From Candidatus Pacebacteria bacterium RIFOXYA1_FULL_38_18 (GTDB lineage Bacteria; Patescibacteriota; Microgenomatia; UBA1400; PJMF01), in the NCBI GenBank assembly GCA_001787405.1, contig MFWV01000011.1, positions 118,860 to 182,859 on the forward strand: DNA of 64,000 nucleotides. Direction: 5' to 3'. The position numbers and the translations under genes were made by a program. The notes beneath the pieces were generated by a model. That model made no database searches. It saw nothing but the letters and a program-made list of their open reading frames with translations, and was not told where the DNA came from. Shown one piece after another: positions 1 through 63,289 of this stretch (its first letter is position 1; every line of letters begins with the position of its first letter).

Positions 1-45
1 ACATTTGCAATGTAGAGGTCAAGGGTTCGAGCCCCTTAGGGTCCA
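1..45 (+). tRNA. tRNA-Ala(UGC), 3' portion only (5' end lies before the window); spacer tRNA of the rRNA operon
   Basis: Anticodon loop ttTGCaa at 5-11. T-arm aaggg/TTCGAGC/ccctt at 23-37. Acceptor 3' strand agggtcc plus discriminator a. Sits immediately upstream of the 23S rRNA. Confidence 0.6.
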
Positions 46-225
46 CTTAGCCTATTTTGTTTGGCTGTTTCTTATTCGTTTCTGGTTTCGTCTACCGACG
101 AGACGAGGGCGAATAACAAGCAGCTAAAAAATGCTTGAAATTGCTCTTTAAAAAGTGAAGAGAATTATCATCTAATTAATACATTCGTCGAGAATGTTGA
201 AAAAAGAAAAATAATTTCGCTAATA

Positions 226-3130
<2,905 letters not shown>

Positions 3131-3286
3131 TTATTAACGAATTTCTTTTTAAAGATTTCAGACTTATGTTTGAAAAGATGATAAACACTCTTCACTTTTT
3201 AGTGAGCAAAAACAACCTTGCTTGAATGCTTGGTTGAATACTTGGTTAAATGCAACTTAACATAGAATTAGAAAAAGCGTTTTATT

Positions 3287-3402
3287 CTGGTCTCTAGAGC
3301 GAGGTGGAACCAACTCTTTCCATCCCGAACAGAGTCTTGAAACGCCTCAGCGCTGACAATAGTGTTTCCTAGTTGAAACGCGAAGATAGGTCGAGGCCAG
3401 AA
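3287..3402 (+). rRNA. rrf: 5S ribosomal RNA
   Basis: Helix I ctggtctc/gaggccag, conserved ccatcccgaac and gaaacgc motifs, ~116 nt, directly downstream of the 23S. Confidence 0.85.
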
Positions 3403-9488: not shown

Positions 9489-11177
9489 ATGATTCTCAAA
9501 CTCTCTCAATTTTTTAGCAACAATGGTAAGTGGCTGGAAAAAAAGCAGACCTCGATTTTGTCTGCGGCGCTGATTATTACGATAGCCAATATTGCTTCTT
9601 CATTAGCGGGCTTGTTGCGAGAGAGATTGCTGATTTCCTCGTTTTTTGATTCGATAGAAACACAGTTAGCCTATGAAGCTTTTCAAGTGGCTTTTCAAAT
9701 TCCTGACATGCTTTTTCAATTGGTAATTCTGGGTGCGGTGGCGGCTTCATTCATTCCACTGTTTACGGATTTGAAAAAAAGTTCAGAAGAAGAGGCTTTC
9801 AGATTTACTTCTTCGGTTATGAATCTTTTATTACTCATTTTTATTATTTTTTCACTAATTATCGGTATATTTGCCTATCCACTAACTGAGTGGAGAACAG
9901 GAGCAGCTTTTACTCCAGAACAGGTTGGGATCACGGTAGGATTGACTCGATTAATGCTTTTTGCACAGTTATTTTTTGCTGTGTCAAATTTTTTGACCGG
10001 CATGTTGCAATCATATCGGCGTTTTATCATACCGGCTATTGCACCCGTGCTTTATAACTTTGGAATTATTTTGGGCGTGTATTTATTCAAGAGTTCTTTT
10101 GGCATTTATTCTGCTGGTTTGGGCGTGATTTTGGGAGCTTTTTTGCACATGATCATGCAAGTGCCTCTAGCTTGGAAGATGGGTTTTAGGCCCAAATTAA
10201 TAATTGATTTTAAAAGTGTTGCTTTGAGAAAACTTTTTCGAATGATGCCTCCCAGAGTGCTGACGATTGGTATTTCTGAGTTGCAAAATTTGGGATTGGG
10301 CTTTTTTGCGACCACGATTGGTGGGTTGAGTTTTGTAGTGATTAGATTGGGCATGAGACTGATGACTATTCCAATTCGTTTATTTGGAGTGCCCATCAGT
10401 CAGGCCTCATTGCCATTTTTGGCGCAAGAAACAGGCGAGGAAGAACATCAGCGTTTTAATTCATTGGTTATTCAGTCACTACATCAAATTTCGTTTTTTG
10501 CTCTGCCAGCCTCGGCTTTGTTATTGATTTTGCGTATCCCCATTGTGCGGTTGATTTTTGGAGCAGACAATTTTCCTTGGCAGACCACATTGTCTACGGG
10601 TAGAGTAGTAGCAATTTTGGCTTTTTCCGTGGCGGCTCAAGCCATGACGCAATTACTAGTTCGGACTTTTTATGCCCTAAAAAATACCAAGACGCCTCTC
10701 TATATTACTTTGGCTGCATCTAGTTTGTTTTTTACGATTAGTGCTTTGGCAGTCGCTTATACATCTTGGGGGGTTTTGGGTTTGGCTTTTTCATTACTGA
10801 TTAGTGCTTTTATTGAATTAATTCTCTTTATTATTACTTTGCAAAAGAAACTGCACTGTTTTACTTTCCGAGATTTTTGGTGGCCACAAATCAAGATGAT
10901 TTCCTCAAGTTTTTTGATGGCAGTGTTCTTATATTTACCGTTCAAGATTTTGGATGAACTGGTGTTTGATACTACTCGTACTTTGGAATTGGTTGCTTTG
11001 ACTTTGAGCACCAGCACAATCGGCATGTTGGTTTATATTTATTTCTCTATGTTATTTGAAGTGAAGGAGTTGAATTATTTGAATAAATTATTCTCAACTA
11101 TGACTCGTTGGCGTCAATTTTTGGCTAGCTCCAAAGAAGTACTCGTGGAAACCAGTGCCGATGGTAATGAAATGTAA
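9489..11177 (+). CDS. murJ: lipid II flippase MurJ (MviN family)
   Basis: 562 aa, 12-14 TM helices, MurJ/MviN family-like sequence (not checked residue by residue against a reference). Confidence 0.85.
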   Translation: MILKLSQFFSNNGKWLEKKQTSILSAALIITIANIASSLAGLLRERLLISSFFDSIETQLAYEAFQVAFQIPDMLFQLVILGAVAASFIPLFTDLKKSSEEEAFRFTSSVMNLLLLIFIIFSLIIGIFAYPLTEWRTGAAFTPEQVGITVGLTRLMLFAQLFFAVSNFLTGMLQSYRRFIIPAIAPVLYNFGIILGVYLFKSSFGIYSAGLGVILGAFLHMIMQVPLAWKMGFRPKLIIDFKSVALRKLFRMMPPRVLTIGISELQNLGLGFFATTIGGLSFVVIRLGMRLMTIPIRLFGVPISQASLPFLAQETGEEEHQRFNSLVIQSLHQISFFALPASALLLILRIPIVRLIFGADNFPWQTTLSTGRVVAILAFSVAAQAMTQLLVRTFYALKNTKTPLYITLAASSLFFTISALAVAYTSWGVLGLAFSLLISAFIELILFIITLQKKLHCFTFRDFWWPQIKMISSSFLMAVFLYLPFKILDELVFDTTRTLELVALTLSTSTIGMLVYIYFSMLFEVKELNYLNKLFSTMTRWRQFLASSKEVLVETSADGNEM

Positions 11178-11252
11178 ATGAATGATTAAAACAATAAATG
11201 CCTAGTAACGAGCGCATTTTTTCTCTACAATGGATTTAAGCTAACTGTCTAT

Positions 11253-11813
11253 ATGAAAAACAAATTAGTTGCCATAGATATAAATTTGGTTCCCAAAGAT
11301 CCTTTTTTTGAGACTTCTTTGGGTAGAATTTTGCAGTGGTCGCTATCTGTGGGTAGATATATCGTGATGTTTACTGAGTTGATTGTGGTGTTGAGTTTTG
11401 CCACGCGATTTTATTTGGATCGACAGGTTACTGATTTAAATCAAGCCATTACTAGAAAGGAAGGGGTGGTGGCATCTTATAGCGAGTTTGAACAAGAATT
11501 TCTGGCTGCTCAAGAAAAAATTAATCAATATCAACAAATTGCTCAACGAGAAAATTTGGTAGAAATTTTTCCGATTTTGAGACAGGTTATTCCCAATGGA
11601 GTAGAACTTGAAGAATTGGCAATTTATCCAGATAAAATTGCTATAACCGGAGTAGTTCTTTCTCAGCAATCTTTGAATTTATTGATCAATAACCTTCAAA
11701 TTTCACCCAATTTTGTCAATGTAGTAGTAAACACAATTGAATCACAGGGTTCATTGAGTGCTGGTTTTACTTTTAGACTCAATGCTCAGACGGTTTTTAC
11801 ATCAAAAGAATAA
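11253..11813 (+). CDS. pilN: type IV pilus assembly protein PilN-like
   Basis: N-terminal INLVP motif (PilN INLLP signature), a single TM helix, then a coiled coil and periplasmic domain. Confidence 0.6.
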   Translation: MKNKLVAIDINLVPKDPFFETSLGRILQWSLSVGRYIVMFTELIVVLSFATRFYLDRQVTDLNQAITRKEGVVASYSEFEQEFLAAQEKINQYQQIAQRENLVEIFPILRQVIPNGVELEELAIYPDKIAITGVVLSQQSLNLLINNLQISPNFVNVVVNTIESQGSLSAGFTFRLNAQTVFTSKE

Positions 11814-28186: not shown

Positions 28187-30052
28187 TCAAAAAGAAATTT
28201 TATAAACTAATGAACCGCTCACGGCAAAGACAGCATTTTCGCTCAAAGAGGCGGCGATGGTGTCGACTGTGGCCAGCGATTCGCTGATGATTTCTTTGAA
28301 AAAACTCCCGTCTTTACTCAAAACAACCAAGCGCTGACGAGCACGCTCCAATACAAATAAATATTCTGAATCGGGGTGGGTAGCAATTTTTAGTTCAGAA
28401 TCAAAAGCAATCGAGAGATCATTGACGGTAAAGTTTTGAGGACGACCTTGAGTATATTTTAGCAATTCTCCAGATTTGGTCGTCAGCCATACATCACCAT
28501 CAATAGCCAAATCAGTAATAGAATTAAATTCCAAGTTTTGTTTATCTACTAGCCAGCCAATCGGTTCGCTCAAACCCTCCGTATTTTTTAAATAACGATA
28601 AATATTTCTTTCTTCTGGATTGATAATATAAAGATAAGTAGCGAAAAGTCCCAATAAATTACCAGCTCGATCAGAATCTCCCTGTTCTTTGAGTCTAGTT
28701 TCTTGGCGAGTTTCTCCAGATAAATCATAAGCATAAATACCATCTGCCAAGACATAGATAGTTTCACCACTGACTGCCAGCGCTCTAGCAGTGCCAATGT
28801 TTTCCAAAGGAATTTGGGTTGTTTGCTTGGTGTCTAAATCTAGAGTGACGATTTTTTGTCCAGCTGCATCCAGAGTAAATAAAGTATCTTCATTTAAAGC
28901 GATTTGTTGAGCCACAAAATCGGCTTCAGTGAGACGTAAATCAAAAAATGGATCTAAAGGTCCGGCAAGTTGAGTGCTGGTAATGGATTGTACGAAATCT
29001 TGAGCCTCTTGGTAGTTTTGTTTTAATCTTTTGAGGGCTTGTGGTTTATCTTGATTGCCGGCGATTAAATCTTCTAGTCCTTTAATCACTTCTTTAGCAT
29101 CATTTCTAGCCATAATGGGATCATTTTCGGCAATACTTTGAGCTGACTCTAGTTGTTGTTCCAATTCGCCCAGTTTGGGTTGAAGAGCTTGAATTTCTTG
29201 ATTAATTTGATGTTTTTTCCAAAGGATTAAGCTAAGCAGTAAAACAATTATTAGTCCTGCTCCTAGCCAAAAATTGTAATTAGTTCGTTTGGACAATTGG
29301 TTGAGAGAACCCATTCTGGGTTTGCTGCCACTAGTAATGATGTTTTTGATTTTTCTCCAAGATTTTTTGACCAAAAATAAAGGGTTTTTTGGCCAGCGCA
29401 AGAGTTTAATTTTTTGAATTGTTTGAGAAAAAAGTTTTGGATTAAGTTGCTTGAGCAATTTTTTGGGTTGATCAGTTAAATTAATTGTTTCTTTTGGTTC
29501 GACAAGGCCATCTTCTATCCAGGCTAGGGCAGAGAGAGATGAGTTCTCTTGATTTTGCAACTCTGCCACCAATTGAGTGACCAAGCTTTCTGTATCGCGT
29601 TGTAAAAGAATTTTCAGTTCGGGAAAGATTATGGTTGATTGTTCGGTGGCCAGCACAAACAAGTCTTTTGACACTTTTGATCCCTCAATGATTTTGAGAT
29701 TTCCTTGAGAGGACAAAATTTCTCCCACTCGACCTTGGCGACGCAAAAACACTGAGCCACTGTGAGTGGCGATGATGTTTTTATCTTCGCTTTGCAAAAT
29801 ACAAGCCAGTTGCAGACGGCAGTCTTCTCTGCGAGCACTTTGTAATAAATCCAAGAGATCATTGTGCAGTTGAGCGCTGTTGATAACTTTGAAATGAGAA
29901 ATTTGTTCGGCTAGCGTTTTTCCGACAGAATTGGCATTTTTGCCAATTACTGACAGCACGCAAGTAAGAGCTCGAGAGGGGTGGGTAATTACTTGGGCCC
30001 AACCGTTGACCTGAGGCAGGCCGGTAATGGGTGTCACCTGTAGGCTTGACAC
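28187..30052 (-). CDS. large membrane protein: N-terminal cytoplasmic domain, one TM helix, coiled coil and C-terminal beta-propeller-like repeat domain; hypothetical
   Basis: 621-aa ORF. TM helix NFWLGAGLIIVLLLSLILW at mid-protein. Repeated beta-strand-rich C-terminus. Confidence 0.55.
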   Translation of the reverse strand: MSSLQVTPITGLPQVNGWAQVITHPSRALTCVLSVIGKNANSVGKTLAEQISHFKVINSAQLHNDLLDLLQSARREDCRLQLACILQSEDKNIIATHSGSVFLRRQGRVGEILSSQGNLKIIEGSKVSKDLFVLATEQSTIIFPELKILLQRDTESLVTQLVAELQNQENSSLSALAWIEDGLVEPKETINLTDQPKKLLKQLNPKLFSQTIQKIKLLRWPKNPLFLVKKSWRKIKNIITSGSKPRMGSLNQLSKRTNYNFWLGAGLIIVLLLSLILWKKHQINQEIQALQPKLGELEQQLESAQSIAENDPIMARNDAKEVIKGLEDLIAGNQDKPQALKRLKQNYQEAQDFVQSITSTQLAGPLDPFFDLRLTEADFVAQQIALNEDTLFTLDAAGQKIVTLDLDTKQTTQIPLENIGTARALAVSGETIYVLADGIYAYDLSGETRQETRLKEQGDSDRAGNLLGLFATYLYIINPEERNIYRYLKNTEGLSEPIGWLVDKQNLEFNSITDLAIDGDVWLTTKSGELLKYTQGRPQNFTVNDLSIAFDSELKIATHPDSEYLFVLERARQRLVVLSKDGSFFKEIISESLATVDTIAASLSENAVFAVSGSLVYKISF

Positions 30053-30222: not shown

Positions 30223-31347
30223 TTATTGTTGGCTGATTGGCCAACTGGGTCGTCGATCAAGTTTTTGGGCTTTGAAACTCGGTTTTCTAGCCAAAATATA
30301 GCTACCGGCTACACCAATCATGGCAGCATTATCACCAGTCAATTTTGAAGAATAGGGTGCACGAAAGCTTAGTTTTTGTGAGCGCGCCAAAGAGCGCAAC
30401 TTGGCTCGTAAAATCAAGTTGGCAGCCACTCCACCGCCCAACCATAATTCTTTAATCTCAATCTGATCTAATAATTTTTCAAGTTTGTAGATGATGTGAG
30501 AAAAAACTCCTTCTTGGAGAGAGGCGCAAAAATCATTGATGGTTTTTTGATCAAGTTTTTCTTCTACGATCAATCGTTTGATTAAGCGCTGAGAATGAGT
30601 TTTGAGACCGGAAAAACTCATATTAAAATTTGCTACATTGGTCATGGGCAAAGGAAAATCAAAGCGGTTTTTATCTCCTTTTTTGGCCAACTGTTCAACA
30701 ATAGGGGCTGCGGGATAGCCCAGATTGAGCAAACGACCAATTTTATCCAAACATTCGCCGGCTGCATCATCAACAGTCATGCCCAGTCGTCGATATTGAC
30801 CGATTTTTTTAATCAAAATAAACTCGGTGTGACCACCAGAAACAATGACGCTTAGGACGGGCAACTTTGGTTTGATGGTCCGATGAAGTTTTTTTCTAGC
30901 TTTGGCTTGGGCTAAAACCGATAAAACATGTCCTTCAATATGATTGACGGGAATGACTGGTTTTTGGTGTTGTTTGCCCAAATTGAGAGCGGTTTGCAAA
31001 CCTATTTCCAGAGCTGGTGCCAAACCCGGTCCTTGAGTAACAGCAATAGCATCAATAGCCGACCATTTCTCGGTTATTTTTCTGGCTAAACTTGCTTGTC
31101 TGAGAGCTGTTTTAATGACAGGCTGAATGTTTTCTTGATGGGCTTGTTTGGCGGCGGTGGGGAAGACTCCGCCGTAGCGTTGATGGATTTGTGCTTGAGA
31201 GGCGATGACGTTGGAAAGCACCACCTGCCCTCTAACCACCGCCGCCGACGTCTCATCACAAGAAGTATCGATTGCTAAAATGAGTGGTTTAGACATGGCT
31301 ACCCTGTTCTTTAAGAGTAATTTTTCTGGTTTCTTCATCAATTTCAA
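30223..31347 (-). CDS. tsaD: tRNA N6-adenosine threonylcarbamoyltransferase TsaD (Kae1/Gcp family)
   Basis: ILAIDTSCDETSAAVV and NHIEGH metal-binding motifs. Met at 31296 is an alternative start. Confidence 0.85.
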   Translation of the reverse strand: MKLMKKPEKLLLKNRVAMSKPLILAIDTSCDETSAAVVRGQVVLSNVIASQAQIHQRYGGVFPTAAKQAHQENIQPVIKTALRQASLARKITEKWSAIDAIAVTQGPGLAPALEIGLQTALNLGKQHQKPVIPVNHIEGHVLSVLAQAKARKKLHRTIKPKLPVLSVIVSGGHTEFILIKKIGQYRRLGMTVDDAAGECLDKIGRLLNLGYPAAPIVEQLAKKGDKNRFDFPLPMTNVANFNMSFSGLKTHSQRLIKRLIVEEKLDQKTINDFCASLQEGVFSHIIYKLEKLLDQIEIKELWLGGGVAANLILRAKLRSLARSQKLSFRAPYSSKLTGDNAAMIGVAGSYILARKPSFKAQKLDRRPSWPISQQ

Positions 31348-32374
31348 CGAAAGTGAGCAGTAAATCTGGTTTATTAGGCCTTGCTTTATCAGGCCAAAAC
31401 TTCATTACTTGCTGCCACCATTCTACTGCCACAACGTTGCCTGGTTGAAGCAAGCGGTCTGCTTGCAATTGATCAAAATCTGCTTGCGTATCGATTTTCC
31501 ACATATCCAAATGATACAATTTTCCTCTAGTGTCATGGCGAAGATAAGCATATTCATTTAAATAGGTATAGGTTGGTGAAACGATGGGCTCTGTTATTTT
31601 CAAAAACCGACCAATGCCCTGAGTAAAAACAGTTTTACCCGCTCCCAACTCACCATCCAAACCAATCAAAAGTCCCTGTTTACCAACTTGATTCCAATAT
31701 TTGAGCATTAATTTACCAGCCAATTCTCTAGTTTCTTGATCTGAAAAAGTAGTAAAAACTTGATCATTTGTGTCTTGATGACCACGCACCGTCAGAGGTG
31801 TTGAAAAAGTAGTGTCAATGACGATTGATGGTTCATGATGAGGCAATTCTCCAGCATCAATCGCTAAATCAATTAAAGATTTTTGCTTTTCAGATAAATG
31901 ATCAAAAATATCTGTCAAAGAATAAGGGCGTTTTTTACCAGAAGTATTGGCTGAAGTAGCGGTGATGGGTTTGGCTAGTTTCCCAACCAGCTGAGTAACC
32001 AAATCATAACTGGAAAGTCTGATGCCCAATGTGCCAAACTCAGATTCTACTCCTGGAGCTACTCGTTCCAAACCTTTGGAAATGATGGTGTAAGGACCAG
32101 GCAGAAATTTTTGGTAGAGCTGATGCGCCTGATCAGTCAACTCAACATATTGCTCAGCCATTTGTTGACTGGCAACAGCAATGGAAAGAGGCTTGCCTTC
32201 TCGACGAGATTTATAGCGCAGTAATTTTTCAACAGCACCAACATGAGTTGCATCTGCACCCACCCCATAAACTGTTTCAGTGGGATAAATTACCAAGCCA
32301 CCTTGGCGCAGTGCGGTCACAGCTTCTTCAATCACTTTATCAATTGAGTTAGTAGTGAGCTTGATTATTTTCAT
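31289..32374 (-). CDS. fusion protein: N-terminal TsaC/YrdC (L-threonylcarbamoyladenylate synthase) domain plus C-terminal TsaE (YjeE P-loop) domain
   Basis: YrdC motif LVIYPTETVYGVGADAT in the N-terminal half. TsaE motifs GLDGELGAGKTVFTQG and SPTYTYLNEY in the C-terminal half. Confidence 0.8.
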   Translation of the reverse strand: MKIIKLTTNSIDKVIEEAVTALRQGGLVIYPTETVYGVGADATHVGAVEKLLRYKSRREGKPLSIAVASQQMAEQYVELTDQAHQLYQKFLPGPYTIISKGLERVAPGVESEFGTLGIRLSSYDLVTQLVGKLAKPITATSANTSGKKRPYSLTDIFDHLSEKQKSLIDLAIDAGELPHHEPSIVIDTTFSTPLTVRGHQDTNDQVFTTFSDQETRELAGKLMLKYWNQVGKQGLLIGLDGELGAGKTVFTQGIGRFLKITEPIVSPTYTYLNEYAYLRHDTRGKLYHLDMWKIDTQADFDQLQADRLLQPGNVVAVEWWQQVMKFWPDKARPNKPDLLLTFVEIDEETRKITLKEQGSHV

Positions 32375-32595
32375 CGTCAGTATTGTACCAGGCTAGTTTT
32401 GGAAAGCCCTCAAATTGCCATCCCTTCCAAATCAAACTCAAATTCTAAATCAAAGTCAAAATCAAAGATTTTGTTTTTAATTCAAAAATAGCTAAAAACA
32501 AACTGAAGATAAATAATCTTGCTCAAGTAATATCCTCAAAATAGTGTCATCAAATTTTATTTATTGTTTTAGCATATAGAGTATAATTAATTTAC

Positions 32596-32964
32596 ATGCA
32601 AAAAAGTCGTTTTATCAAAGTTGCCATTCCCGACGATCAACAGATACTAACCAGAGAAGAAAATATCTTGGATGAACAGGTAAGATTTGATCTTTATCGT
32701 AAAGAAAAAGAAATCAAGGAAATCTCACAAATTCTCAAAAATTTGGCAGTCAAAGAAACAGCTGAACGGCGTTGGTTGCAAGATAACGAAGGTTTGGCTA
32801 CTGATTTGGTAGAAGAGTTTGTCGAAGATTCTCTATATAAACTGGATGGTGCTCAAATGAATGGCGAAACCTTGGAACTTTCTGTAGAAGTGATGAGTAA
32901 ATTACGCGAAACGCTGGGATTATTCCAGGCAGTGATTGCCAATAGTGAAGAATTGGAGGCTTAG
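32596..32964 (+). CDS. acidic hypothetical protein
   Basis: 122-aa ORF with no recognisable domain. Confidence 0.4.
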   Translation: MQKSRFIKVAIPDDQQILTREENILDEQVRFDLYRKEKEIKEISQILKNLAVKETAERRWLQDNEGLATDLVEEFVEDSLYKLDGAQMNGETLELSVEVMSKLRETLGLFQAVIANSEELEA

Positions 32965-33006
32965 TGCTTTTCCCAAATTCACGAACTTGCGGTAGAATAG
33001 GAAGTT

Positions 33007-33645
33007 ATGGAATTTGATCGATTGGTAGTTTCTTTTTTTGTTGACGAAGTTGTGGGCGGATTTTTCATCTCTGTTCCACCTGGTCACGTAGCCTGTGTCT
33101 ATGATCGTGGTCGTGGTGTTTTACCCCGGGTTTGGGGTCCAGGCCTTCACCTCAAGATTCCTTTTTGGCAAGTGGCCAAGTTATTTAATGCTCAAGTTTT
33201 GGAATATTCCATAGATGCCAATTTTGACTTGTCTATCAACAAAGAGGCTTTGGGTGATCAATCAATCATGACTTCCACCAAAGATGGTAAAGATGTTTCT
33301 ATTCAAGGCTCGGTTTTATTTAGAATTGATCGAGAGAATGCTCCTGAACTTTGGGAAAATATTGGCGAAAACATGGTTTCCAAAGTCGTACGTCCTTTTT
33401 CCAGAAGTCGTATTTCTTCGGTTATCAGTGAATATACCTTGGATCAAATTAAAAATAATCGTTCTCAAATCGAGGCAATCATTCGTGATGATCTAAGTAA
33501 ACACTTCCGCGATCGCGGTTTGAACTGTGAGGGATTTTTACTTTCTGAAGTGAGAGTGAAGAGTTCTGGCGGTAAAGAACAAACCGTGATTAGTGCTGCT
33601 TCCACCAAGCAAGAAGAGCAAGTTACTGACTCCGTGAAGGAATAA
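33007..33645 (+). CDS. SPFH/Band 7 (prohibitin/HflC-like) domain protein
   Basis: N-terminal TM helix followed by an SPFH-like core. Confidence 0.65.
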   Translation: MEFDRLVVSFFVDEVVGGFFISVPPGHVACVYDRGRGVLPRVWGPGLHLKIPFWQVAKLFNAQVLEYSIDANFDLSINKEALGDQSIMTSTKDGKDVSIQGSVLFRIDRENAPELWENIGENMVSKVVRPFSRSRISSVISEYTLDQIKNNRSQIEAIIRDDLSKHFRDRGLNCEGFLLSEVRVKSSGGKEQTVISAASTKQEEQVTDSVKE

Positions 33646-33664
33646 TTTTTCATTTTCTCTCGGC

Positions 33665-33693
33665 TTGACAGAATTTTATTTGTTCGTTATCAT
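33665..33693 (+). promoter_or_regulatory. putative sigma70 promoter of groES-groEL
   Basis: TTGACA, a 17-nt spacer, then TATCAT. Confidence 0.45.
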
Positions 33694-33704
33694 CACGACT
33701 AATG

Positions 33705-33747
33705 TAGTGCTAGCAAACGAAGAGCTTGTTTGCTATTATGAGCACTC
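33705..33747. promoter_or_regulatory. nested inverted-repeat operator downstream of the groES promoter (atypical, everted CIRCE-like)
   Basis: tAGTGCTAGCAAAC-gaagagct-GTTTGCTA-ttatg-AGCACTc. The outer arms carry CIRCE half-site cores in reversed order. The inner arms form TAGCAAAC-N8-GTTTGCTA. Confidence 0.45.
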
Positions 33748-33795
33748 GGACGGAATTTGTTTAGTATTAAACAGTATTTATTTGAAAGGAATTTC

Positions 33796-34191
33796 ATGAA
33801 AAATCTCAAAGCAACTCAATTGAAACCTCTGGCTGGATATGTTCTAGTCGAACCAGCTCAACCAGAAGAAAAAACTGCCTCAGGCATTATTTTACCCGGT
33901 AATAAAGAAGAAAAACCTCAATATGGAACGGTTTTAGCTTGCGGTAAAAGTGATTGTGGTTCTTGTGGAGATTGTAGTGGTTGTGGTGAGGGTTGTGGGG
34001 ATTGCGGTGAGGGTTGTGGAGACTGTGGCGATAAAGCCAAAAAAGCCAAATCAGGCAGTTGCGAATGCCCGGTAGCAGTTGGCGATTTGGTGATTTATAA
34101 AAAATGGGGTGGTAATGATGTCATGATTGATGATGTGGAATACCAATTCCTAAAATTTGAAGATATTTTGGCGGTAGTGAGTAAAAAGTAA
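33796..34191 (+). CDS. groES: co-chaperonin GroES with a 13-cysteine, Gly/Asp-rich insertion in the roof-hairpin region
   Basis: GroES mobile loop and C-terminal strands are conserved. The insert KSDCGSCGDCSGCGEGCGDCGEGCGDCGDKAKKAKSGSCECP is encoded by tandem ggttgtgg.gattgcggtgag-type repeats. AAGGA RBS and ATG at 33796. Confidence 0.85.
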   Translation: MKNLKATQLKPLAGYVLVEPAQPEEKTASGIILPGNKEEKPQYGTVLACGKSDCGSCGDCSGCGEGCGDCGEGCGDCGDKAKKAKSGSCECPVAVGDLVIYKKWGGNDVMIDDVEYQFLKFEDILAVVSKK

Positions 34192-34267
34192 AAATCAAGA
34201 TTTAGTTGCAAGCTAATTTTTAAAGCTTTCAACTTTTAATTTAAAAATTAAAAAAAAGGAGTAATTT

Positions 34268-35890
34268 ATGGCAGCAAAACAATTAATTTTCGGTGACGAA
34301 GCTAGACAAAAAATGCTGGGTGGTATCACTCAGTTAGCTCAAGCAGTGACCACTACTTTGGGGCCCAAGGGTCGTAATGTAGCCCTAGATCGTTCTTGGG
34401 GAGCTCCCAGTGTGATTCATGATGGCGTGACAGTGGCCAAAGAAATCGAACTGGAAGACAAATTTGAAAACATGGGCGCTCAATTGGTCAAAGAAGCAGC
34501 CTCCAAAACCAATGATGTGGCTGGTGATGGTACTACCACTGCTACACTTTTGGCCTGGAAATTGGCCGAACGGGGCATGAAATATGTTACTTCTGGTGCC
34601 AATCCAATGATTATGAAACGAGGTATTGATCGAGCTATCAAGGCAGTAGTGGCAGAGATTAATCGAGTGGCCAAACCAGTCAAAGAAAGCGACTGGGAAA
34701 AAGTAGCCACGATCTCTGCTCAAAGCGAAGAGATTGGTCAAAAAATTGCTGAAGCTCTCAAAAAAGTTGGTAAAGATGGAGTAGTGGAAGTGGAAGAGGG
34801 CAAAACCATGGAAATCGAGATAGAACATAAAGAGGGCATGGAGTTTGATAAAGGTTATGCCTCTCCCTATTTTGTAACCGATTCAGAAAACATGGAGGCA
34901 GTGATCGAAGATACTCTAATTTTAGTCACTGATCAAAAACTTTCCAATATCAAAGACATTTTGCCTTTATTGGAACAAGTAGTAAATGCTGGCAAAGGTT
35001 TGGTGTTGATCGCCGATGAAATTGAAGGCGAAGCCCTGACCACTTTGGTAGTCAATAAACTGCGCGGTTCTTTCAAAGTTTTACCAGTCAAAGCTCCAGG
35101 ATTTGGTGATCGCAGAAAAGCGATGTTGCAAGACATTGCTGTTTTGACAGGAGCCTCATTTGTCAGTGAAGAAACCGGTGTACAACTCAAAGACGTTACC
35201 ATTGATCTACTAGGCAGAGCAGATAGTGTCAGAAGCACCAAAGATTCCACCAGAATTGTGGGTGGTAAAGGGAGCAAAAATGACATCAATGCCAGGGTTG
35301 CTCAGATCGAAGCAGAGATTAAAAACTCTACTTCTGATTTTGACATCGAAAAATTACAGGAGCGCAAAGCTCGTTTGACTGGCGGAGTGGCCGTAATCCA
35401 AGTAGGTGCTAGTACCGAAATGGAGATGAAAAACCTGCAAGAGCGAGTCAAAGACGCCAAGGAAGCAACCAAAGCTGCGATTGAAAGCGGAATTATTCCT
35501 GGTGGCGGAGTGACTCTCTTGCAAGCCGAAAAGGCTTTGAGTGCGATTAAAACCAGCAGTGAAGATGAAAAAGTTGGTGTGGATCTAGTCCGCTCCGTCC
35601 TAGAAGAGCCATTGCGGATGCTTGCTACCAATTCTGGTGAAGATGCCGGTTGGGTAGTGGGTCAAGTGCGCGAAAAAAATGATGGTTCTTGGGGCTTTAA
35701 TGCTTTGACCAATAAATTTGAAGATTTAGTGGCAGCTGGAGTAATTGAACCTGCCAAAGTAGCGGTTGCTTCTCTGGAAAATGCCGCTTCAGTGGCTTCA
35801 ATGATTCTAACCACGGAGTGCTTGGTGACTGATGTTCCCAAAAACGAAGAAGCTCCCGCCATGGGCGGAGGCATGCCTGGGATGATGTAA
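34268..35890 (+). CDS. groEL: chaperonin GroEL
   Basis: Full-length GroEL with the C-terminal GGMPGMM tail. Confidence 0.97.
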   Translation: MAAKQLIFGDEARQKMLGGITQLAQAVTTTLGPKGRNVALDRSWGAPSVIHDGVTVAKEIELEDKFENMGAQLVKEAASKTNDVAGDGTTTATLLAWKLAERGMKYVTSGANPMIMKRGIDRAIKAVVAEINRVAKPVKESDWEKVATISAQSEEIGQKIAEALKKVGKDGVVEVEEGKTMEIEIEHKEGMEFDKGYASPYFVTDSENMEAVIEDTLILVTDQKLSNIKDILPLLEQVVNAGKGLVLIADEIEGEALTTLVVNKLRGSFKVLPVKAPGFGDRRKAMLQDIAVLTGASFVSEETGVQLKDVTIDLLGRADSVRSTKDSTRIVGGKGSKNDINARVAQIEAEIKNSTSDFDIEKLQERKARLTGGVAVIQVGASTEMEMKNLQERVKDAKEATKAAIESGIIPGGGVTLLQAEKALSAIKTSSEDEKVGVDLVRSVLEEPLRMLATNSGEDAGWVVGQVREKNDGSWGFNALTNKFEDLVAAGVIEPAKVAVASLENAASVASMILTTECLVTDVPKNEEAPAMGGGMPGMM

Positions 35891-35945: not shown

Positions 35946-36113
35946 TTTTCCTCGAGTTGGTAATTTTACTTTATCCTATAACTATTGACACTGTCTTATA
36001 GTATTTGATATAGTGATAGATAGTAAGTCTAGCCCCATGCTCACAAGGAATCTTTGCGATTCTTGGTGTGTGCATGAGGGGATGGCTTGCTCTTTAAAAA
36101 TTCGGTTTTCAAA

Positions 36114-36134
36114 TTCCCGCTTAAAAAGCGGGAA
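36114..36134 (+). promoter_or_regulatory. perfect 7-bp stem hairpin (ttcccgc-ttaaaaa-gcgggaa) ~25 nt upstream of the lipoprotein RBS
   Basis: Read directly from the sequence. No trailing T-run, so it is not a classical terminator. Confidence 0.3.
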
Positions 36135-36159
36135 AATTTCCCACACCCAAGGAGAAGAA

Positions 36160-36618
36160 ATGAAAAAAATAATTTTTGTTATTTTTCTTTCCATGGCCCT
36201 AGTGGCCTGTGGAAAGGAACAAAACTTGGCACCAGAAACGGTGCCAAGTGCTGCTCAAGTCGAGGCTGGGCGGGCTTTGCCCGCCCAGCCCACCCCAGCT
36301 TATGAAGAGCTGGGAGTTTCCTCTCACCACCTGATATTTCAGGTGGAAGAGGGCGACGCAGGCGTCTTGGACGCCATGCGACGGACCTTGGGCGAAGAGC
36401 CCAGGGAAAAAGGAACTTTCATCCTCGAGATGATCGAGGTTGAAAGCCAGGGGGAAGTTTTTGCATACGACTGGGAAGCGCTTTTAGCGCTGAACCCAAT
36501 CGTACGCGAAGGAGATAGGGTCTGTATGACCTATATCCTTGGTTGCCTCGGGGAGGAGATCCCCGAGGAGAACGTTTTTATCTTCTGGCAGCCTTCTCCG
36601 GCTGCCGGAGGAGAATAA
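36160..36618 (+). CDS. lipoprotein (signal peptide plus lipobox LVAC/G), hypothetical; body encoded by a high-GC segment
   Basis: AAGGAG RBS at 36149-36154. MKKIIFVIFLSMALVACGKE lipoprotein signal. The sequence from ~36230 onward is ~58% GC against a ~40% background. Confidence 0.55.
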   Translation: MKKIIFVIFLSMALVACGKEQNLAPETVPSAAQVEAGRALPAQPTPAYEELGVSSHHLIFQVEEGDAGVLDAMRRTLGEEPREKGTFILEMIEVESQGEVFAYDWEALLALNPIVREGDRVCMTYILGCLGEEIPEENVFIFWQPSPAAGGE

Positions 36619-36666: not shown

Positions 36667-36765
36667 AGCTTTTTTCTATTTTTTTTCTAACTAGCGTGAT
36701 AATAAATTGCCAGACTTTTTATACTTACAACTTCCCAACCAAAACAACGGGTTGAATAACCTTGT

Positions 36766-36838
36766 ACCAGGGGTGAGAGTTGAACTCACGACCTCAGGTT
36801 TATGAATCCTGTGCTCTAACCAACTGAGCTACCCTGGC
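36766..36838 (-). tRNA. tRNA with anticodon CAU (elongator tRNA-Met or lysidine-type tRNA-Ile2)
   Basis: Minus-strand cloverleaf gccaggg...D-arm tagctcagttggttagagc...anticodon loop ttCATaa...T-arm gtgag/TTCAACT/ctcac...ccctggt-a. Confidence 0.75.
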
Positions 36839-36957: not shown

Positions 36958-37026
36958 CGCGGGGTAGTGTACGGTGCACGTGAGGCTCATAATCTCACAG
37001 GCTAGGTTCGACTCCTAGCCCCGCAA
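36958..37026 (+). tRNA. initiator-type tRNA-fMet(CAU)
   Basis: 5' CGCGGGG and 3' CCCCGCA-A with the C1xA72 mismatch diagnostic of bacterial initiator tRNA. Anticodon loop ctCATaa. T-arm ctagg/TTCGACT/cctag. Short D-loop. Confidence 0.7.
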
Positions 37027-37138
37027 CAATTAATTTATCTTTATATTTTATATTTTTCTAAGTCATTTTTTTAAATCAGTTTTTATTAGTTTTAAATTTA
37101 TTGTATACTTATTTAACTATCAAATTTTAAGGACTAAA

Positions 37139-62267: not shown

Positions 62268-62810
62268 ATGGTTGAAAATGCTCAAAAACTAGCACCCAAA
62301 ATTTGCATGACTGCTGCTGGTTTTTTGGTACATGATAATAAAGTTTTATTAGTTAAACATAAGAAGTTGGGATTTTGGTTGGCTCCCGGTGGACACATTG
62401 AAGATGACGAGTTGCCCCATCAGACTGCTGAGAGAGAATTTTGGGAGGAGACAGGAATTAAAGTCAAGGCAATCAGTACCGGTGAAGTTTTGCCCAAAGT
62501 GGGCAAAACCAGTTATCATCCATTGCCTTTTGCCATCAATTTGCATTGGATTAGTCCTGAAAATTACGAGGCACGTTTGGCTAGTAGCAATCCCATCAAA
62601 CGCTATTTTTCCAATCAAAAATGGCCCAAGGGTTGTGAACAACACGTTTCAATTATTTATTTAGTAAAGCTGATTGCTGGTTTGGATTTCAAACAAAATA
62701 CTGAAGAAACGGATGGTATTGGCTGGTTTACTTTAAAAGAACTAGAAAAAATCAAAACCATTCCGGAAATGAAAGAAGAGGCTAAACACGCATTAATCTT
62801 GGTAAAATAA
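62268..62810 (+). CDS. NUDIX hydrolase
   Basis: Nudix box GGHIEDDELPHQTAEREFWEETGI. Confidence 0.75.
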   Translation: MVENAQKLAPKICMTAAGFLVHDNKVLLVKHKKLGFWLAPGGHIEDDELPHQTAEREFWEETGIKVKAISTGEVLPKVGKTSYHPLPFAINLHWISPENYEARLASSNPIKRYFSNQKWPKGCEQHVSIIYLVKLIAGLDFKQNTEETDGIGWFTLKELEKIKTIPEMKEEAKHALILVK

Positions 62811-62818
62811 GGAATATT

Positions 62819-63289
62819 ATGTCATTGACCAACACCATCAAATTTTTACAAAAAGCTGCCCTCATTCATCAAGGAAAAGTCTTGATTTTGAAGCGTCCTG
62901 AAAACTCGGTCAGCAGACCGGGTGCTTGGGATTTGCCTGGTGGCAATGCTGAGTGGCCGGCAACCAATCAGAAGACTGCCAATTTACATCGTCAAGAAGT
63001 TTCCCGGGAAATTGAAGAAGAAACTGGTTTGAAAATAGATCCAGATGTCTTTACTGATGAAAATCTAGTGCATTTTGCTACTTATTTTGAGGCTGATTTG
63101 CCCCGTTTTGCTTTTATTACCGGTTGGCGAGTAAGTTTGGCTGATGATTTTAATCCAGACAGCATTAAGATTTCAGACGAGCACACTCAACTGGCCTGGA
63201 TTGGTTTTACTGAGCTTAGTGATTATGATTTTGGTGAACCAGTGGGCACTTACGTTAAAGTAATAATTCAAAACGCATTCAAGGTATAA
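62819..63289 (+). CDS. NUDIX hydrolase (second, tandem)
   Basis: Nudix box GGNAEWPATNQKTANLHRQEVSREIEEETGL. Confidence 0.75.
   Translation: MSLTNTIKFLQKAALIHQGKVLILKRPENSVSRPGAWDLPGGNAEWPATNQKTANLHRQEVSREIEEETGLKIDPDVFTDENLVHFATYFEADLPRFAFITGWRVSLADDFNPDSIKISDEHTQLAWIGFTELSDYDFGEPVGTYVKVIIQNAFKV

Follow-up and report, generated by a model that had tools for sequence, protein, structure and literature searches.

A bifunctional tsaC-tsaE fusion gene predicted next to tsaD in a Candidatus Pacebacteria genome

Bacterial synthesis of the universal tRNA modification N6-threonylcarbamoyladenosine (t6A) at position 37 uses TsaC (or TsaC2) together with TsaB, TsaD, and TsaE, known in E. coli as YrdC, YeaZ, YgjD, and YjeE and represented structurally by the T. 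maritima TsaB2D2E2 assembly (6S84, 6N9A). Two points are unsettled in this pathway, namely the purpose of ATP hydrolysis by TsaE and the route by which the labile intermediate L-threonylcarbamoyladenylate (TC-AMP) passes from TsaC to TsaD. Here we describe a locus in a 64-kb stretch of DNA from the ultra-small Candidatus Pacebacteria bacterium RIFOXYA1_FULL_38_18 (assembly GCA_001787405.1, contig MFWV01000011.1, positions 118,860 to 182,859), the whole of which is referred to as the window, in which one polypeptide chain is predicted to carry the TC-AMP synthase and the TsaE ATPase as two domains, encoded in the same orientation as tsaD and overlapping it. The locus shares its enzyme families and motifs with the canonical system but differs from it in that TsaC and TsaE form a single chain, the cluster lacks tsaB and rimI, and the stop codon of the fusion overlaps the start of tsaD; the TsaE domain, in canonical systems a stand-alone protein of ~150–160 amino acids (aa) with an ATPase that TsaB-TsaD activates, is here the C-terminal part of a 361-aa protein. 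[quoted passage not shown]

Natural fusions of t6A pathway components have precedents in archaeal Kae1-Bud32 (MJ1130/PRPK) and in TsaC-HemK of Mycoplasma genitalium, both of which have served as evidence that the joined components are functionally linked. The present fusion resembles these in kind and differs in its partners, as Kae1-Bud32 joins a transferase to a kinase/ATPase and TsaC-HemK joins TsaC to a release-factor methyltransferase. It is also reminiscent of TobZ, HypF, and Pandoravirus TsaN, in which a module that forms carbamoyl-adenylate is joined covalently to the transfer apparatus, with the shielding of a labile adenylate as the rationale. In those proteins a YrdC-like module is fused to a Kae1/TsaD-like module, whereas here the partner is a regulatory ATPase and TsaD remains a separate protein read in another frame. 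The features of the locus are as follows.

31289..32374, minus strand: tsaC-tsaE fusion coding sequence, 361 aa plus stop (open reading frame, Pfam, NCBIfam, public gene calls).
31784..32374, minus strand: TsaC/YrdC-type L-threonylcarbamoyladenylate synthase domain, aa 1–197 (Pfam, NCBIfam, invariant columns, PDB sequence matches, Foldseek).
31742..31783, minus strand: interdomain linker, aa 198–211 (low conservation; the predicted local distance difference test score, pLDDT, dips to 72–81).
31292..31741, minus strand: TsaE/YjeE P-loop ATPase domain, aa 212–361 (Pfam, NCBIfam, motifs, Foldseek).
30223..31296, minus strand: tsaD, tRNA A37 threonylcarbamoyltransferase, 357 aa (TIGR03723, PF00814, public gene calls).
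31289..31296, minus strand: 8-nt overlap of the fusion stop with the tsaD start, ATGTCTAA (read directly from the sequence; the two genes lie in different frames).

Direct reading of the open reading frames of the window reveals an ATG-initiated frame of 361 aa with zero internal stops, as had been proposed in an earlier note made on this DNA without database searches. The two domains assigned in that note, YrdC/TsaC followed by TsaE, are both recovered by Pfam: PF01300 (Sua5_yciO_yrdC) matches aa 21–197 (E = 9e-43, 146 bits, cut-off 25.1) and PF02367 (TsaE) matches aa 212–330 (E = 2e-25, 89.4 bits, cut-off 26.6). The corresponding NCBIfam equivalogs likewise score above their cut-offs, with 154.2 bits (cut-off 123.2) for TIGR00057, L-threonylcarbamoyladenylate synthase, and 72.8 bits (cut-off 60.1) for TIGR00150, T6A_YjeE. 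At E values of 1e-25 to 1e-43, a chance match is no concern for either domain. The Pfam domains of the protein are limited to these two, with no match to PF00814 within the fusion and no SUA5 domain at E ≤ 0.01. PDB sequence matches of the TsaC domain include Sua5, TsaC2, MTH1692, and YrdC, the nearest being domains of the Sua5/TsaC2/MTH1692 type, and the 64-kb window holds no second homologue of either TsaC or TsaE.

The catalytic family signatures are retained in both domains, as judged from an alignment of 40 fusion proteins (residue numbers are those of the window protein). The TsaC signature consists of K55-S-R57 and S141-A-N143, in which K55, S141, and N143 never vary and R57 is kept in 90% or more of the sequences, with R57/R58 forming a near-invariant position. 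Together these residues constitute the KRSN tetrad (K-x-R ... S-x-N) that separates TsaC/Sua5 from the paralogue YciO (Thiaville 2015); they were matched to the E. coli residues by motif rather than by structure superposition. In the TsaE domain, the Walker A motif reads G241-x-L-G-A-G-K247-T248, with G241, L243, G244, G246, K247, and T248 invariant, and further invariant residues are found in S266-P-T-Y269 (S266, P267, and Y269), H288-x-D290, and E318-W319. The last pair is, by motif, the probable counterpart of E108 and W109 of E. coli YjeE, both of which are needed for function. Homologues are on average 65% identical to the window protein over the TsaC domain, 50% over the TsaE domain, and 23% over the linker, which can be as short as 14 aa or as long as 51 aa. 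The 40-sequence alignment contains no conserved internal Met able to start a separate TsaE; M222 is Leu in most homologues.

An AlphaFold model of the fusion, computed from the alignment of homologues, has a pLDDT of 90.7 and a predicted template modelling score (pTM) of 0.84 and places the two domains confidently in a compact arrangement. In Foldseek comparisons, the N-terminal half aligns with 1hru and 1k7j (YrdC, YciO) with a template modelling score, TM(target), of 0.77–0.82 and a root mean square deviation (rmsd) of ~3 Å, and it also superposes on the catalytic domain of Sua5/TsaC2. The C-terminal half matches HI0065, YdiB, and T. maritima TsaE (TM 0.70–0.83), with TM(target) values of 0.83 to 1htw, 0.78 to 5np9, and 0.76 to 6s84_B. 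The fusion is similar to Sua5/TsaC2, its closest relatives in the N-terminal catalytic domain, in having a second α/β domain after a linker; that second domain, however, is the P-loop ATPase TsaE and not the Rossmann-like SUA5 domain. Superposition of the full-length fusion on Sua5 is poor (rmsd ~14 Å), so that the TsaE domain is not a mimic of the SUA5 domain. A Sua5-type motif, which we take to contain His and Tyr residues, was not noticed in the linker of the fusion.

The same observations bear on the notion that the fusion is an artefact or a misassignment, i.e., two genes joined by a sequencing or assembly frameshift, an N-terminal domain that is a YciO-type paralogue, or a C-terminal domain that is a generic P-loop protein. 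Nothing was found in favor of this notion beyond the GenBank name “hypothetical”. Against it, the KRSN tetrad is present, both equivalog families are matched above their cut-offs, and the C-terminal fold matches solved TsaE structures. The identical 361-aa protein also occurs in four independent sources (NCBI GCA_001787375.1, contig MFWY01000010.1; ENA ERZ27254811; JGI 3300025087; Logan SRR5855237) and in all is listed in 37 blocks of the sequence collection, and the reading frame is uninterrupted in 40/40 aligned orthologues. The frameshift or sequencing error that the earlier note had allowed for thus finds no place in the data, and we regard artefact and misassignment, to which we give almost no credence, as refuted for practical purposes by the NCBIfam scores, the independent assemblies, the alignment, and the Foldseek matches.

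The fusion is widespread among relatives of the source organism. Identical GenBank proteins (OGJ37569.1, OGJ38147.1, OGJ39631.1, and OGJ39899.1), each named “hypothetical protein”, come from metagenome-assembled genomes (MAGs) of Candidatus Pacebacteria, the phylum of which NCBI gives as Minisyncoccota, formerly Patescibacteria or CPR. The 120 best homologues in the database, which reach down to 49% identity, all combine PF01300 with PF02367, and the names Pacebacteria, Woesebacteria, and “Patescibacteria group” occur among them; some members are already named Sua5/YrdC-family/YjeE (bifunctional) in IMG. A 101-aa probe spanning the domain junction (aa 165–265) was compared with 1.84 billion cluster representatives at 50% identity and returned 183 clusters at E ≤ 1e-3, and most of the best 150 of these match the probe in one stretch (approximately residues 165–267) within proteins of 350–450 aa. 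The junction therefore appears common to at least ~100 divergent 50%-identity clusters, nearly all of which belong to Patescibacteria, namely to Pacebacteria, Woesebacteria, and related groups. Scanning the species representatives of GTDB returned 14 fused loci with 35–57% identity. Several of these representatives (L007, L008–L011, L017, and L018) carry implausible titles (“Vitreimonas sp.”, “uncultured Pseudomonadales”, “Clostridia bacterium”, “uncultured Gammaproteobacteria”) while their fusion and TsaD proteins are Patescibacteria-like, and they are probably mislabelled MAGs. Longer homologues of 415–486 aa (P0123, P0130, P0131, P0181, P0193, and others) contain TsaC and TsaE only, and their extra length is due to insertions inside the YrdC domain or to linkers of up to ~100 aa; with no additional Pfam domain in these variants, the possibility that they are triple fusions containing TsaB was rejected.

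The gene that follows the fusion encodes a typical bacterial TsaD, which scores 333.8 bits on TIGR03723 (cut-off 296.1) and has an E value of 3e-78 on PF00814. Its mechanical open reading frame extends over 30223..31347, and the start that agrees with four public gene calls (357 aa) is the ATG at 31296. At the junction, which reads ...AAA GAA CAG GGT AGC CAT GTC TAA, the fusion stop occupies 31289–31291 and the tsaD ATG occupies 31296–31294, so that the overlap with the tsaD start region remarked on earlier amounts to 8 nt in separate frames. From this arrangement the two genes are probably translationally coupled and presumably co-transcribed, and a “tight coupling” would be a reasonable reading of the fusion and the overlap taken together. 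Scans for promoters and terminators returned nothing above shuffled expectation; for promoters in the fusion region, 9 sites were counted compared with 6.3 ± 2.3 in shuffled sequence. One weak candidate lies just upstream of the fusion.

32384..32392, minus strand: putative extended −10 element, TGGTACAAT, located 9 nt upstream of the ATG of the fusion (weak, suggested by its letters only).

The order fusion-then-tsaD is kept in 14/14 fused loci with enough downstream sequence, the window included; tsaD follows directly in 11 of the 14, and one gene intervenes in L006, L007, and L017. A different arrangement is seen in L075 (labelled Saccharibacteria; 9905..11512), in which a stand-alone tsaE (a 176-aa open reading frame) is followed directly by tsaD and then by rplS and rnhB, with no tsaC or tsaB within 10 kb. 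This locus may represent the pre-fusion gene order, and the unfused tsaE-then-tsaD order suggests that the fusion arose by tsaC joining in front of an existing tsaE-tsaD pair.

The most likely function of the fusion protein is that of a bifunctional subunit that carries the TC-AMP synthase to TsaD along with TsaE. In the solved complex, ATP-bound TsaE occupies the entrance to the active site of TsaD, where it contacts both TsaB and TsaD and competes with tRNA while access for TC-AMP stays open; ATP hydrolysis frees TsaE and is required for multiple turnovers (PMC6009658). Missoury 2018 proposed that TsaE “prepares”, i.e., opens, TsaBD for TC-AMP delivered from TsaC, with a four-protein complex detected only transiently (PMC6009658). 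TC-AMP is very unstable, and a proximity of TsaC to TsaD has been postulated (PMC10484737). The proposed function matches the Missoury 2018 model of TsaE opening TsaD for TC-AMP.

A cycle built on this model would begin with the TsaC domain, which by its sequence would make labile TC-AMP from threonine, bicarbonate, and ATP. The ATP-bound TsaE domain would dock where the active site of TsaD opens, as T. maritima TsaE does, and exclude tRNA there. With TsaC tethered to TsaE, TC-AMP would then be made beside the TsaE-opened TsaD and loaded there, ATP hydrolysis would let the TsaC-TsaE protein go, and tRNA would bind next and be modified at A37. The tether would thereby deliver the synthase exactly when TsaD is in its acceptor state. 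Because TsaC is tethered to TsaE, the fusion would keep the two at a 1:1 ratio and close together when TC-AMP is handed over; it would also spare a streamlined genome one promoter and one intergenic region, and the 8-nt overlap would add translational coupling with tsaD.

Several points weigh against this proposal. In TobZ, the TsaC-like module binds the TsaD-like module on the side opposite to that used by TsaE (PMC6009658). Should the compact arrangement of the AlphaFold model hold true, a channel like that of TobZ could not lead to the same TsaD, and TC-AMP would have to be released nearby or handed to the other TsaD in an assembly of the TsaB2D2 type. The variation in linker length argues against a precisely tuned geometry, and the variable linker and the compact predicted arrangement together yield no clear tunnel geometry. 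In addition, no tsaB was found in the DNA searched, as detailed below.

The fusion could also be a near-neutral by-product of genome compaction that fixes only co-expression. According to this explanation, a “Rosetta-stone” fusion of two neighboring genes resulted from deletion of a stop codon and an intergenic region during streamlining, and the two domains act independently, like free TsaC and TsaE, with no kinetic coupling. The poor conservation and variable length of the linker are in keeping with it, as are the compactness of CPR genomes and the unfused tsaE-then-tsaD order of L075. The persistence of the fusion to ~35% identity and over at least 100 clusters at 50% identity speaks against it, as do the order TsaC-then-TsaE in every fused homologue found, the presence of a secondary split in no fused locus, and the confident placement of the two domains by AlphaFold. 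Furthermore, an independent proposal has TsaC and TsaE acting at one and the same step of the cycle (PMC6009658). We regard a near-neutral origin as improbable and favor the bifunctional subunit.

The question of TsaB was addressed by several searches. The search covered the window and 10 kb past each of its ends, i.e., ~84 kb or ~14% of a ~0.6-Mb genome (the longest assembled contig is 579 kb), as well as ±10 kb of 15 related loci (~270 kb). Among the 54 open reading frames of the window, PF00814 matches TsaD alone. Searches with phmmer using E. coli YeaZ (query sequence verified as identical to PDB 4wq4_C) and using TsaD found only TsaD in the window, in the flanks, and in all fused loci. 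A GPGSFTG motif search likewise turned up only TsaD. A TsaB hidden Markov model (HMM) was built from 94 metagenomic TsaB proteins and applied without any filter to 350 kb of DNA from the fused lineage, where it matched TsaD only (E = 1e-8 to 1e-15). The earlier statement that no tsaB is visible nearby therefore extends to the window with its ~20 kb of flanks and to the surroundings of the 15 related loci, in which the only matches are to TsaD.

Four open reading frames were considered as divergent TsaB candidates and rejected: the window frame 36013..36618 is lipoprotein-like, a 198-aa frame in L005 encodes a membrane protein, and a 176-aa frame between fusion and tsaD in L006 and a 199-aa frame in L014 lack motifs of the ASKHA (acetate and sugar kinases/Hsc70/actin) superfamily. 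Wider scans for a CPR TsaB gave one TsaB in a motif scan of IMG/VR, which is non-CPR, and 119 TsaB loci in a scan of low-GC-biased metagenomes, none of which is demonstrably CPR. One of the loci, L157, was rejected as a CPR TsaB locus on account of its compact 16S-23S-5S operon and its Lys/Asn/Ile-rich, Mollicutes- or Firmicutes-like composition.

These results raise the possibility that the lineage is truly without TsaB. In such a scenario, the clade lost tsaB (and rimI) from an ancestral tsaE-tsaB-rimI-tsaD cluster, TsaD acts as a homodimer like mitochondrial Qri7 or takes the TsaC domain as its partner, and TsaC-TsaE is the sole accessory protein, which would make a three-domain, two-gene bacterial t6A machine. 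The restriction of PF00814 and TsaB-HMM matches to TsaD in both sets of DNA is consistent with such a loss, and so is gene order. The M. tuberculosis operon reads alr-tsaE-tsaB-rimI-tsaD-groES-groEL1; the present locus is like it in that tsaE adjoins tsaD and groESL is nearby, and the fusion stop abuts or overlaps tsaD at the very position where the M. tuberculosis alr-groEL1 operon has tsaB and rimI. Qri7, moreover, works without accessory proteins (PMC6009658).

On the other side, the search reached only ~14% of the genome, and most bacteria have tsaB at a distance from tsaD, the two being clustered in only ~20% of genomes. TsaE contacts both TsaB and TsaD in the solved complex (PMC6009658), and the TsaE motifs are strongly constrained in the fusions, which argues that the normal partner surface of TsaE exists. 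In a published survey of 9176 bacterial genomes, TsaE is the subunit lost by symbionts while TsaB is kept; only two Mycoplasma are without both, and the survey reports no genome that has TsaE but not TsaB. Since surveys report the loss of TsaE with TsaB kept and none with TsaE but without TsaB, a distant tsaB is the likelier explanation: most likely, TsaD still pairs with a TsaB whose gene lies elsewhere in the genome, and true absence of TsaB is unlikely. Were TsaB truly lost, the locus would represent a new minimal t6A architecture, intermediate between the Sua5/Qri7 pair of mitochondria and the bacterial system of four proteins, and TsaE would for the first time be seen to act in a system that lacks TsaB; it is only in that event that the fusion would be surprising.

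The fusion of TsaC to TsaE is non-canonical in its architecture and does not constitute a new system, its parts being an ordinary TsaC, TsaE, and TsaD. In the t6A reviews and evolutionary studies consulted, no mention was found of a TsaC-TsaE fusion or of the t6A genes of CPR/Patescibacteria. Hundreds of these fusion proteins are already in databases, and the automatic names in IMG show both halves, so that the fusion is best described as undescribed but not undiscovered. The view that the fusion is unusual accordingly stands with respect to model bacteria, from whose architecture it differs, and to the t6A papers, in which we did not find it described; it does not stand in the sense of a single-genome oddity, as this is a conserved family of at least ~100 clusters that extends down to ~35% identity.

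A conserved TsaC-TsaE fusion that spans a large radiation and overlaps tsaD is independent evidence, drawn from genomes, for the action of TsaC and TsaE at one and the same step. The protein could also serve as a covalently stabilized reagent for structures of TsaCE-TsaD(B) and for channelling assays. In GenBank, members are labelled “hypothetical” or only “L-threonylcarbamoyladenylate synthase”; pipelines that count tsaE separately would consequently score such genomes as lacking TsaE.

The wider neighborhood of the fusion is arranged in two divergent sets. Along the window, groEL, groES, an SPFH/Band-7 gene, and a gene for a 122-aa protein lie on one strand, and tsaC-tsaE, tsaD, the gene for a 616–621-aa membrane protein, and smpB are transcribed divergently from them. 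The pairing of 32596..35890 (plus strand; the 122-aa gene, SPFH/Band-7, groES, and groEL) with 30223..32374 (minus strand; tsaC-tsaE and tsaD) is conserved in L005–L012, and with its groESL genes it resembles the actinobacterial alr-tsaE-tsaB-rimI-tsaD-groESL cluster minus tsaB and rimI. The GroES (Cpn10) homologue at 33757..34191 (plus strand) is 131–144 aa long rather than ~95–100 aa and contains an internal Cys/Gly/Asp-rich insertion, CGKSDCGSCGDCSGCGEGCGDCGEGCGDCGDKAKKAKSGSCECP, with a metal-binding-like look; the 131-aa length is kept in L005.

Directly downstream of tsaD, 28187..30052 (minus strand) encodes the 616–621-aa protein, which belongs to no Pfam family. It consists of ~240 aa forming an N-terminal domain, a single transmembrane helix, a coiled-coil stretch, and a C-terminal region with weak β-propeller/SGL-like matches. 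This gene (621 aa) was considered as a functional partner of the t6A genes and rejected, as it is conserved in the closest relative, L005, only and not in the other fused loci.

Elsewhere in the window, a 23S rRNA gene (222..3137) and a 5S rRNA gene (3286..3402) occupy the first end (window 1..3402; L087 10923..15430) with a tRNA gene ahead of them; beyond lie protein-coding genes and no 16S rRNA gene, and the rRNA operon appears unlinked. Two divergent tRNA-Met (CAT) genes, 36764..36838 (minus strand) and 36958..37027 (plus strand), are 120 nt apart, and one of them is 70 nt long with a lower Rfam score; the two CAT tRNAs could be an initiator and an elongator, or one could be a tRNA-Ile2 precursor. 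Near the other end, NUDIX hydrolase genes are found in tandem at 62268..62810 and 62819..63289 (plus strand), and a suf Fe-S cluster operon lies beyond the end of the window.

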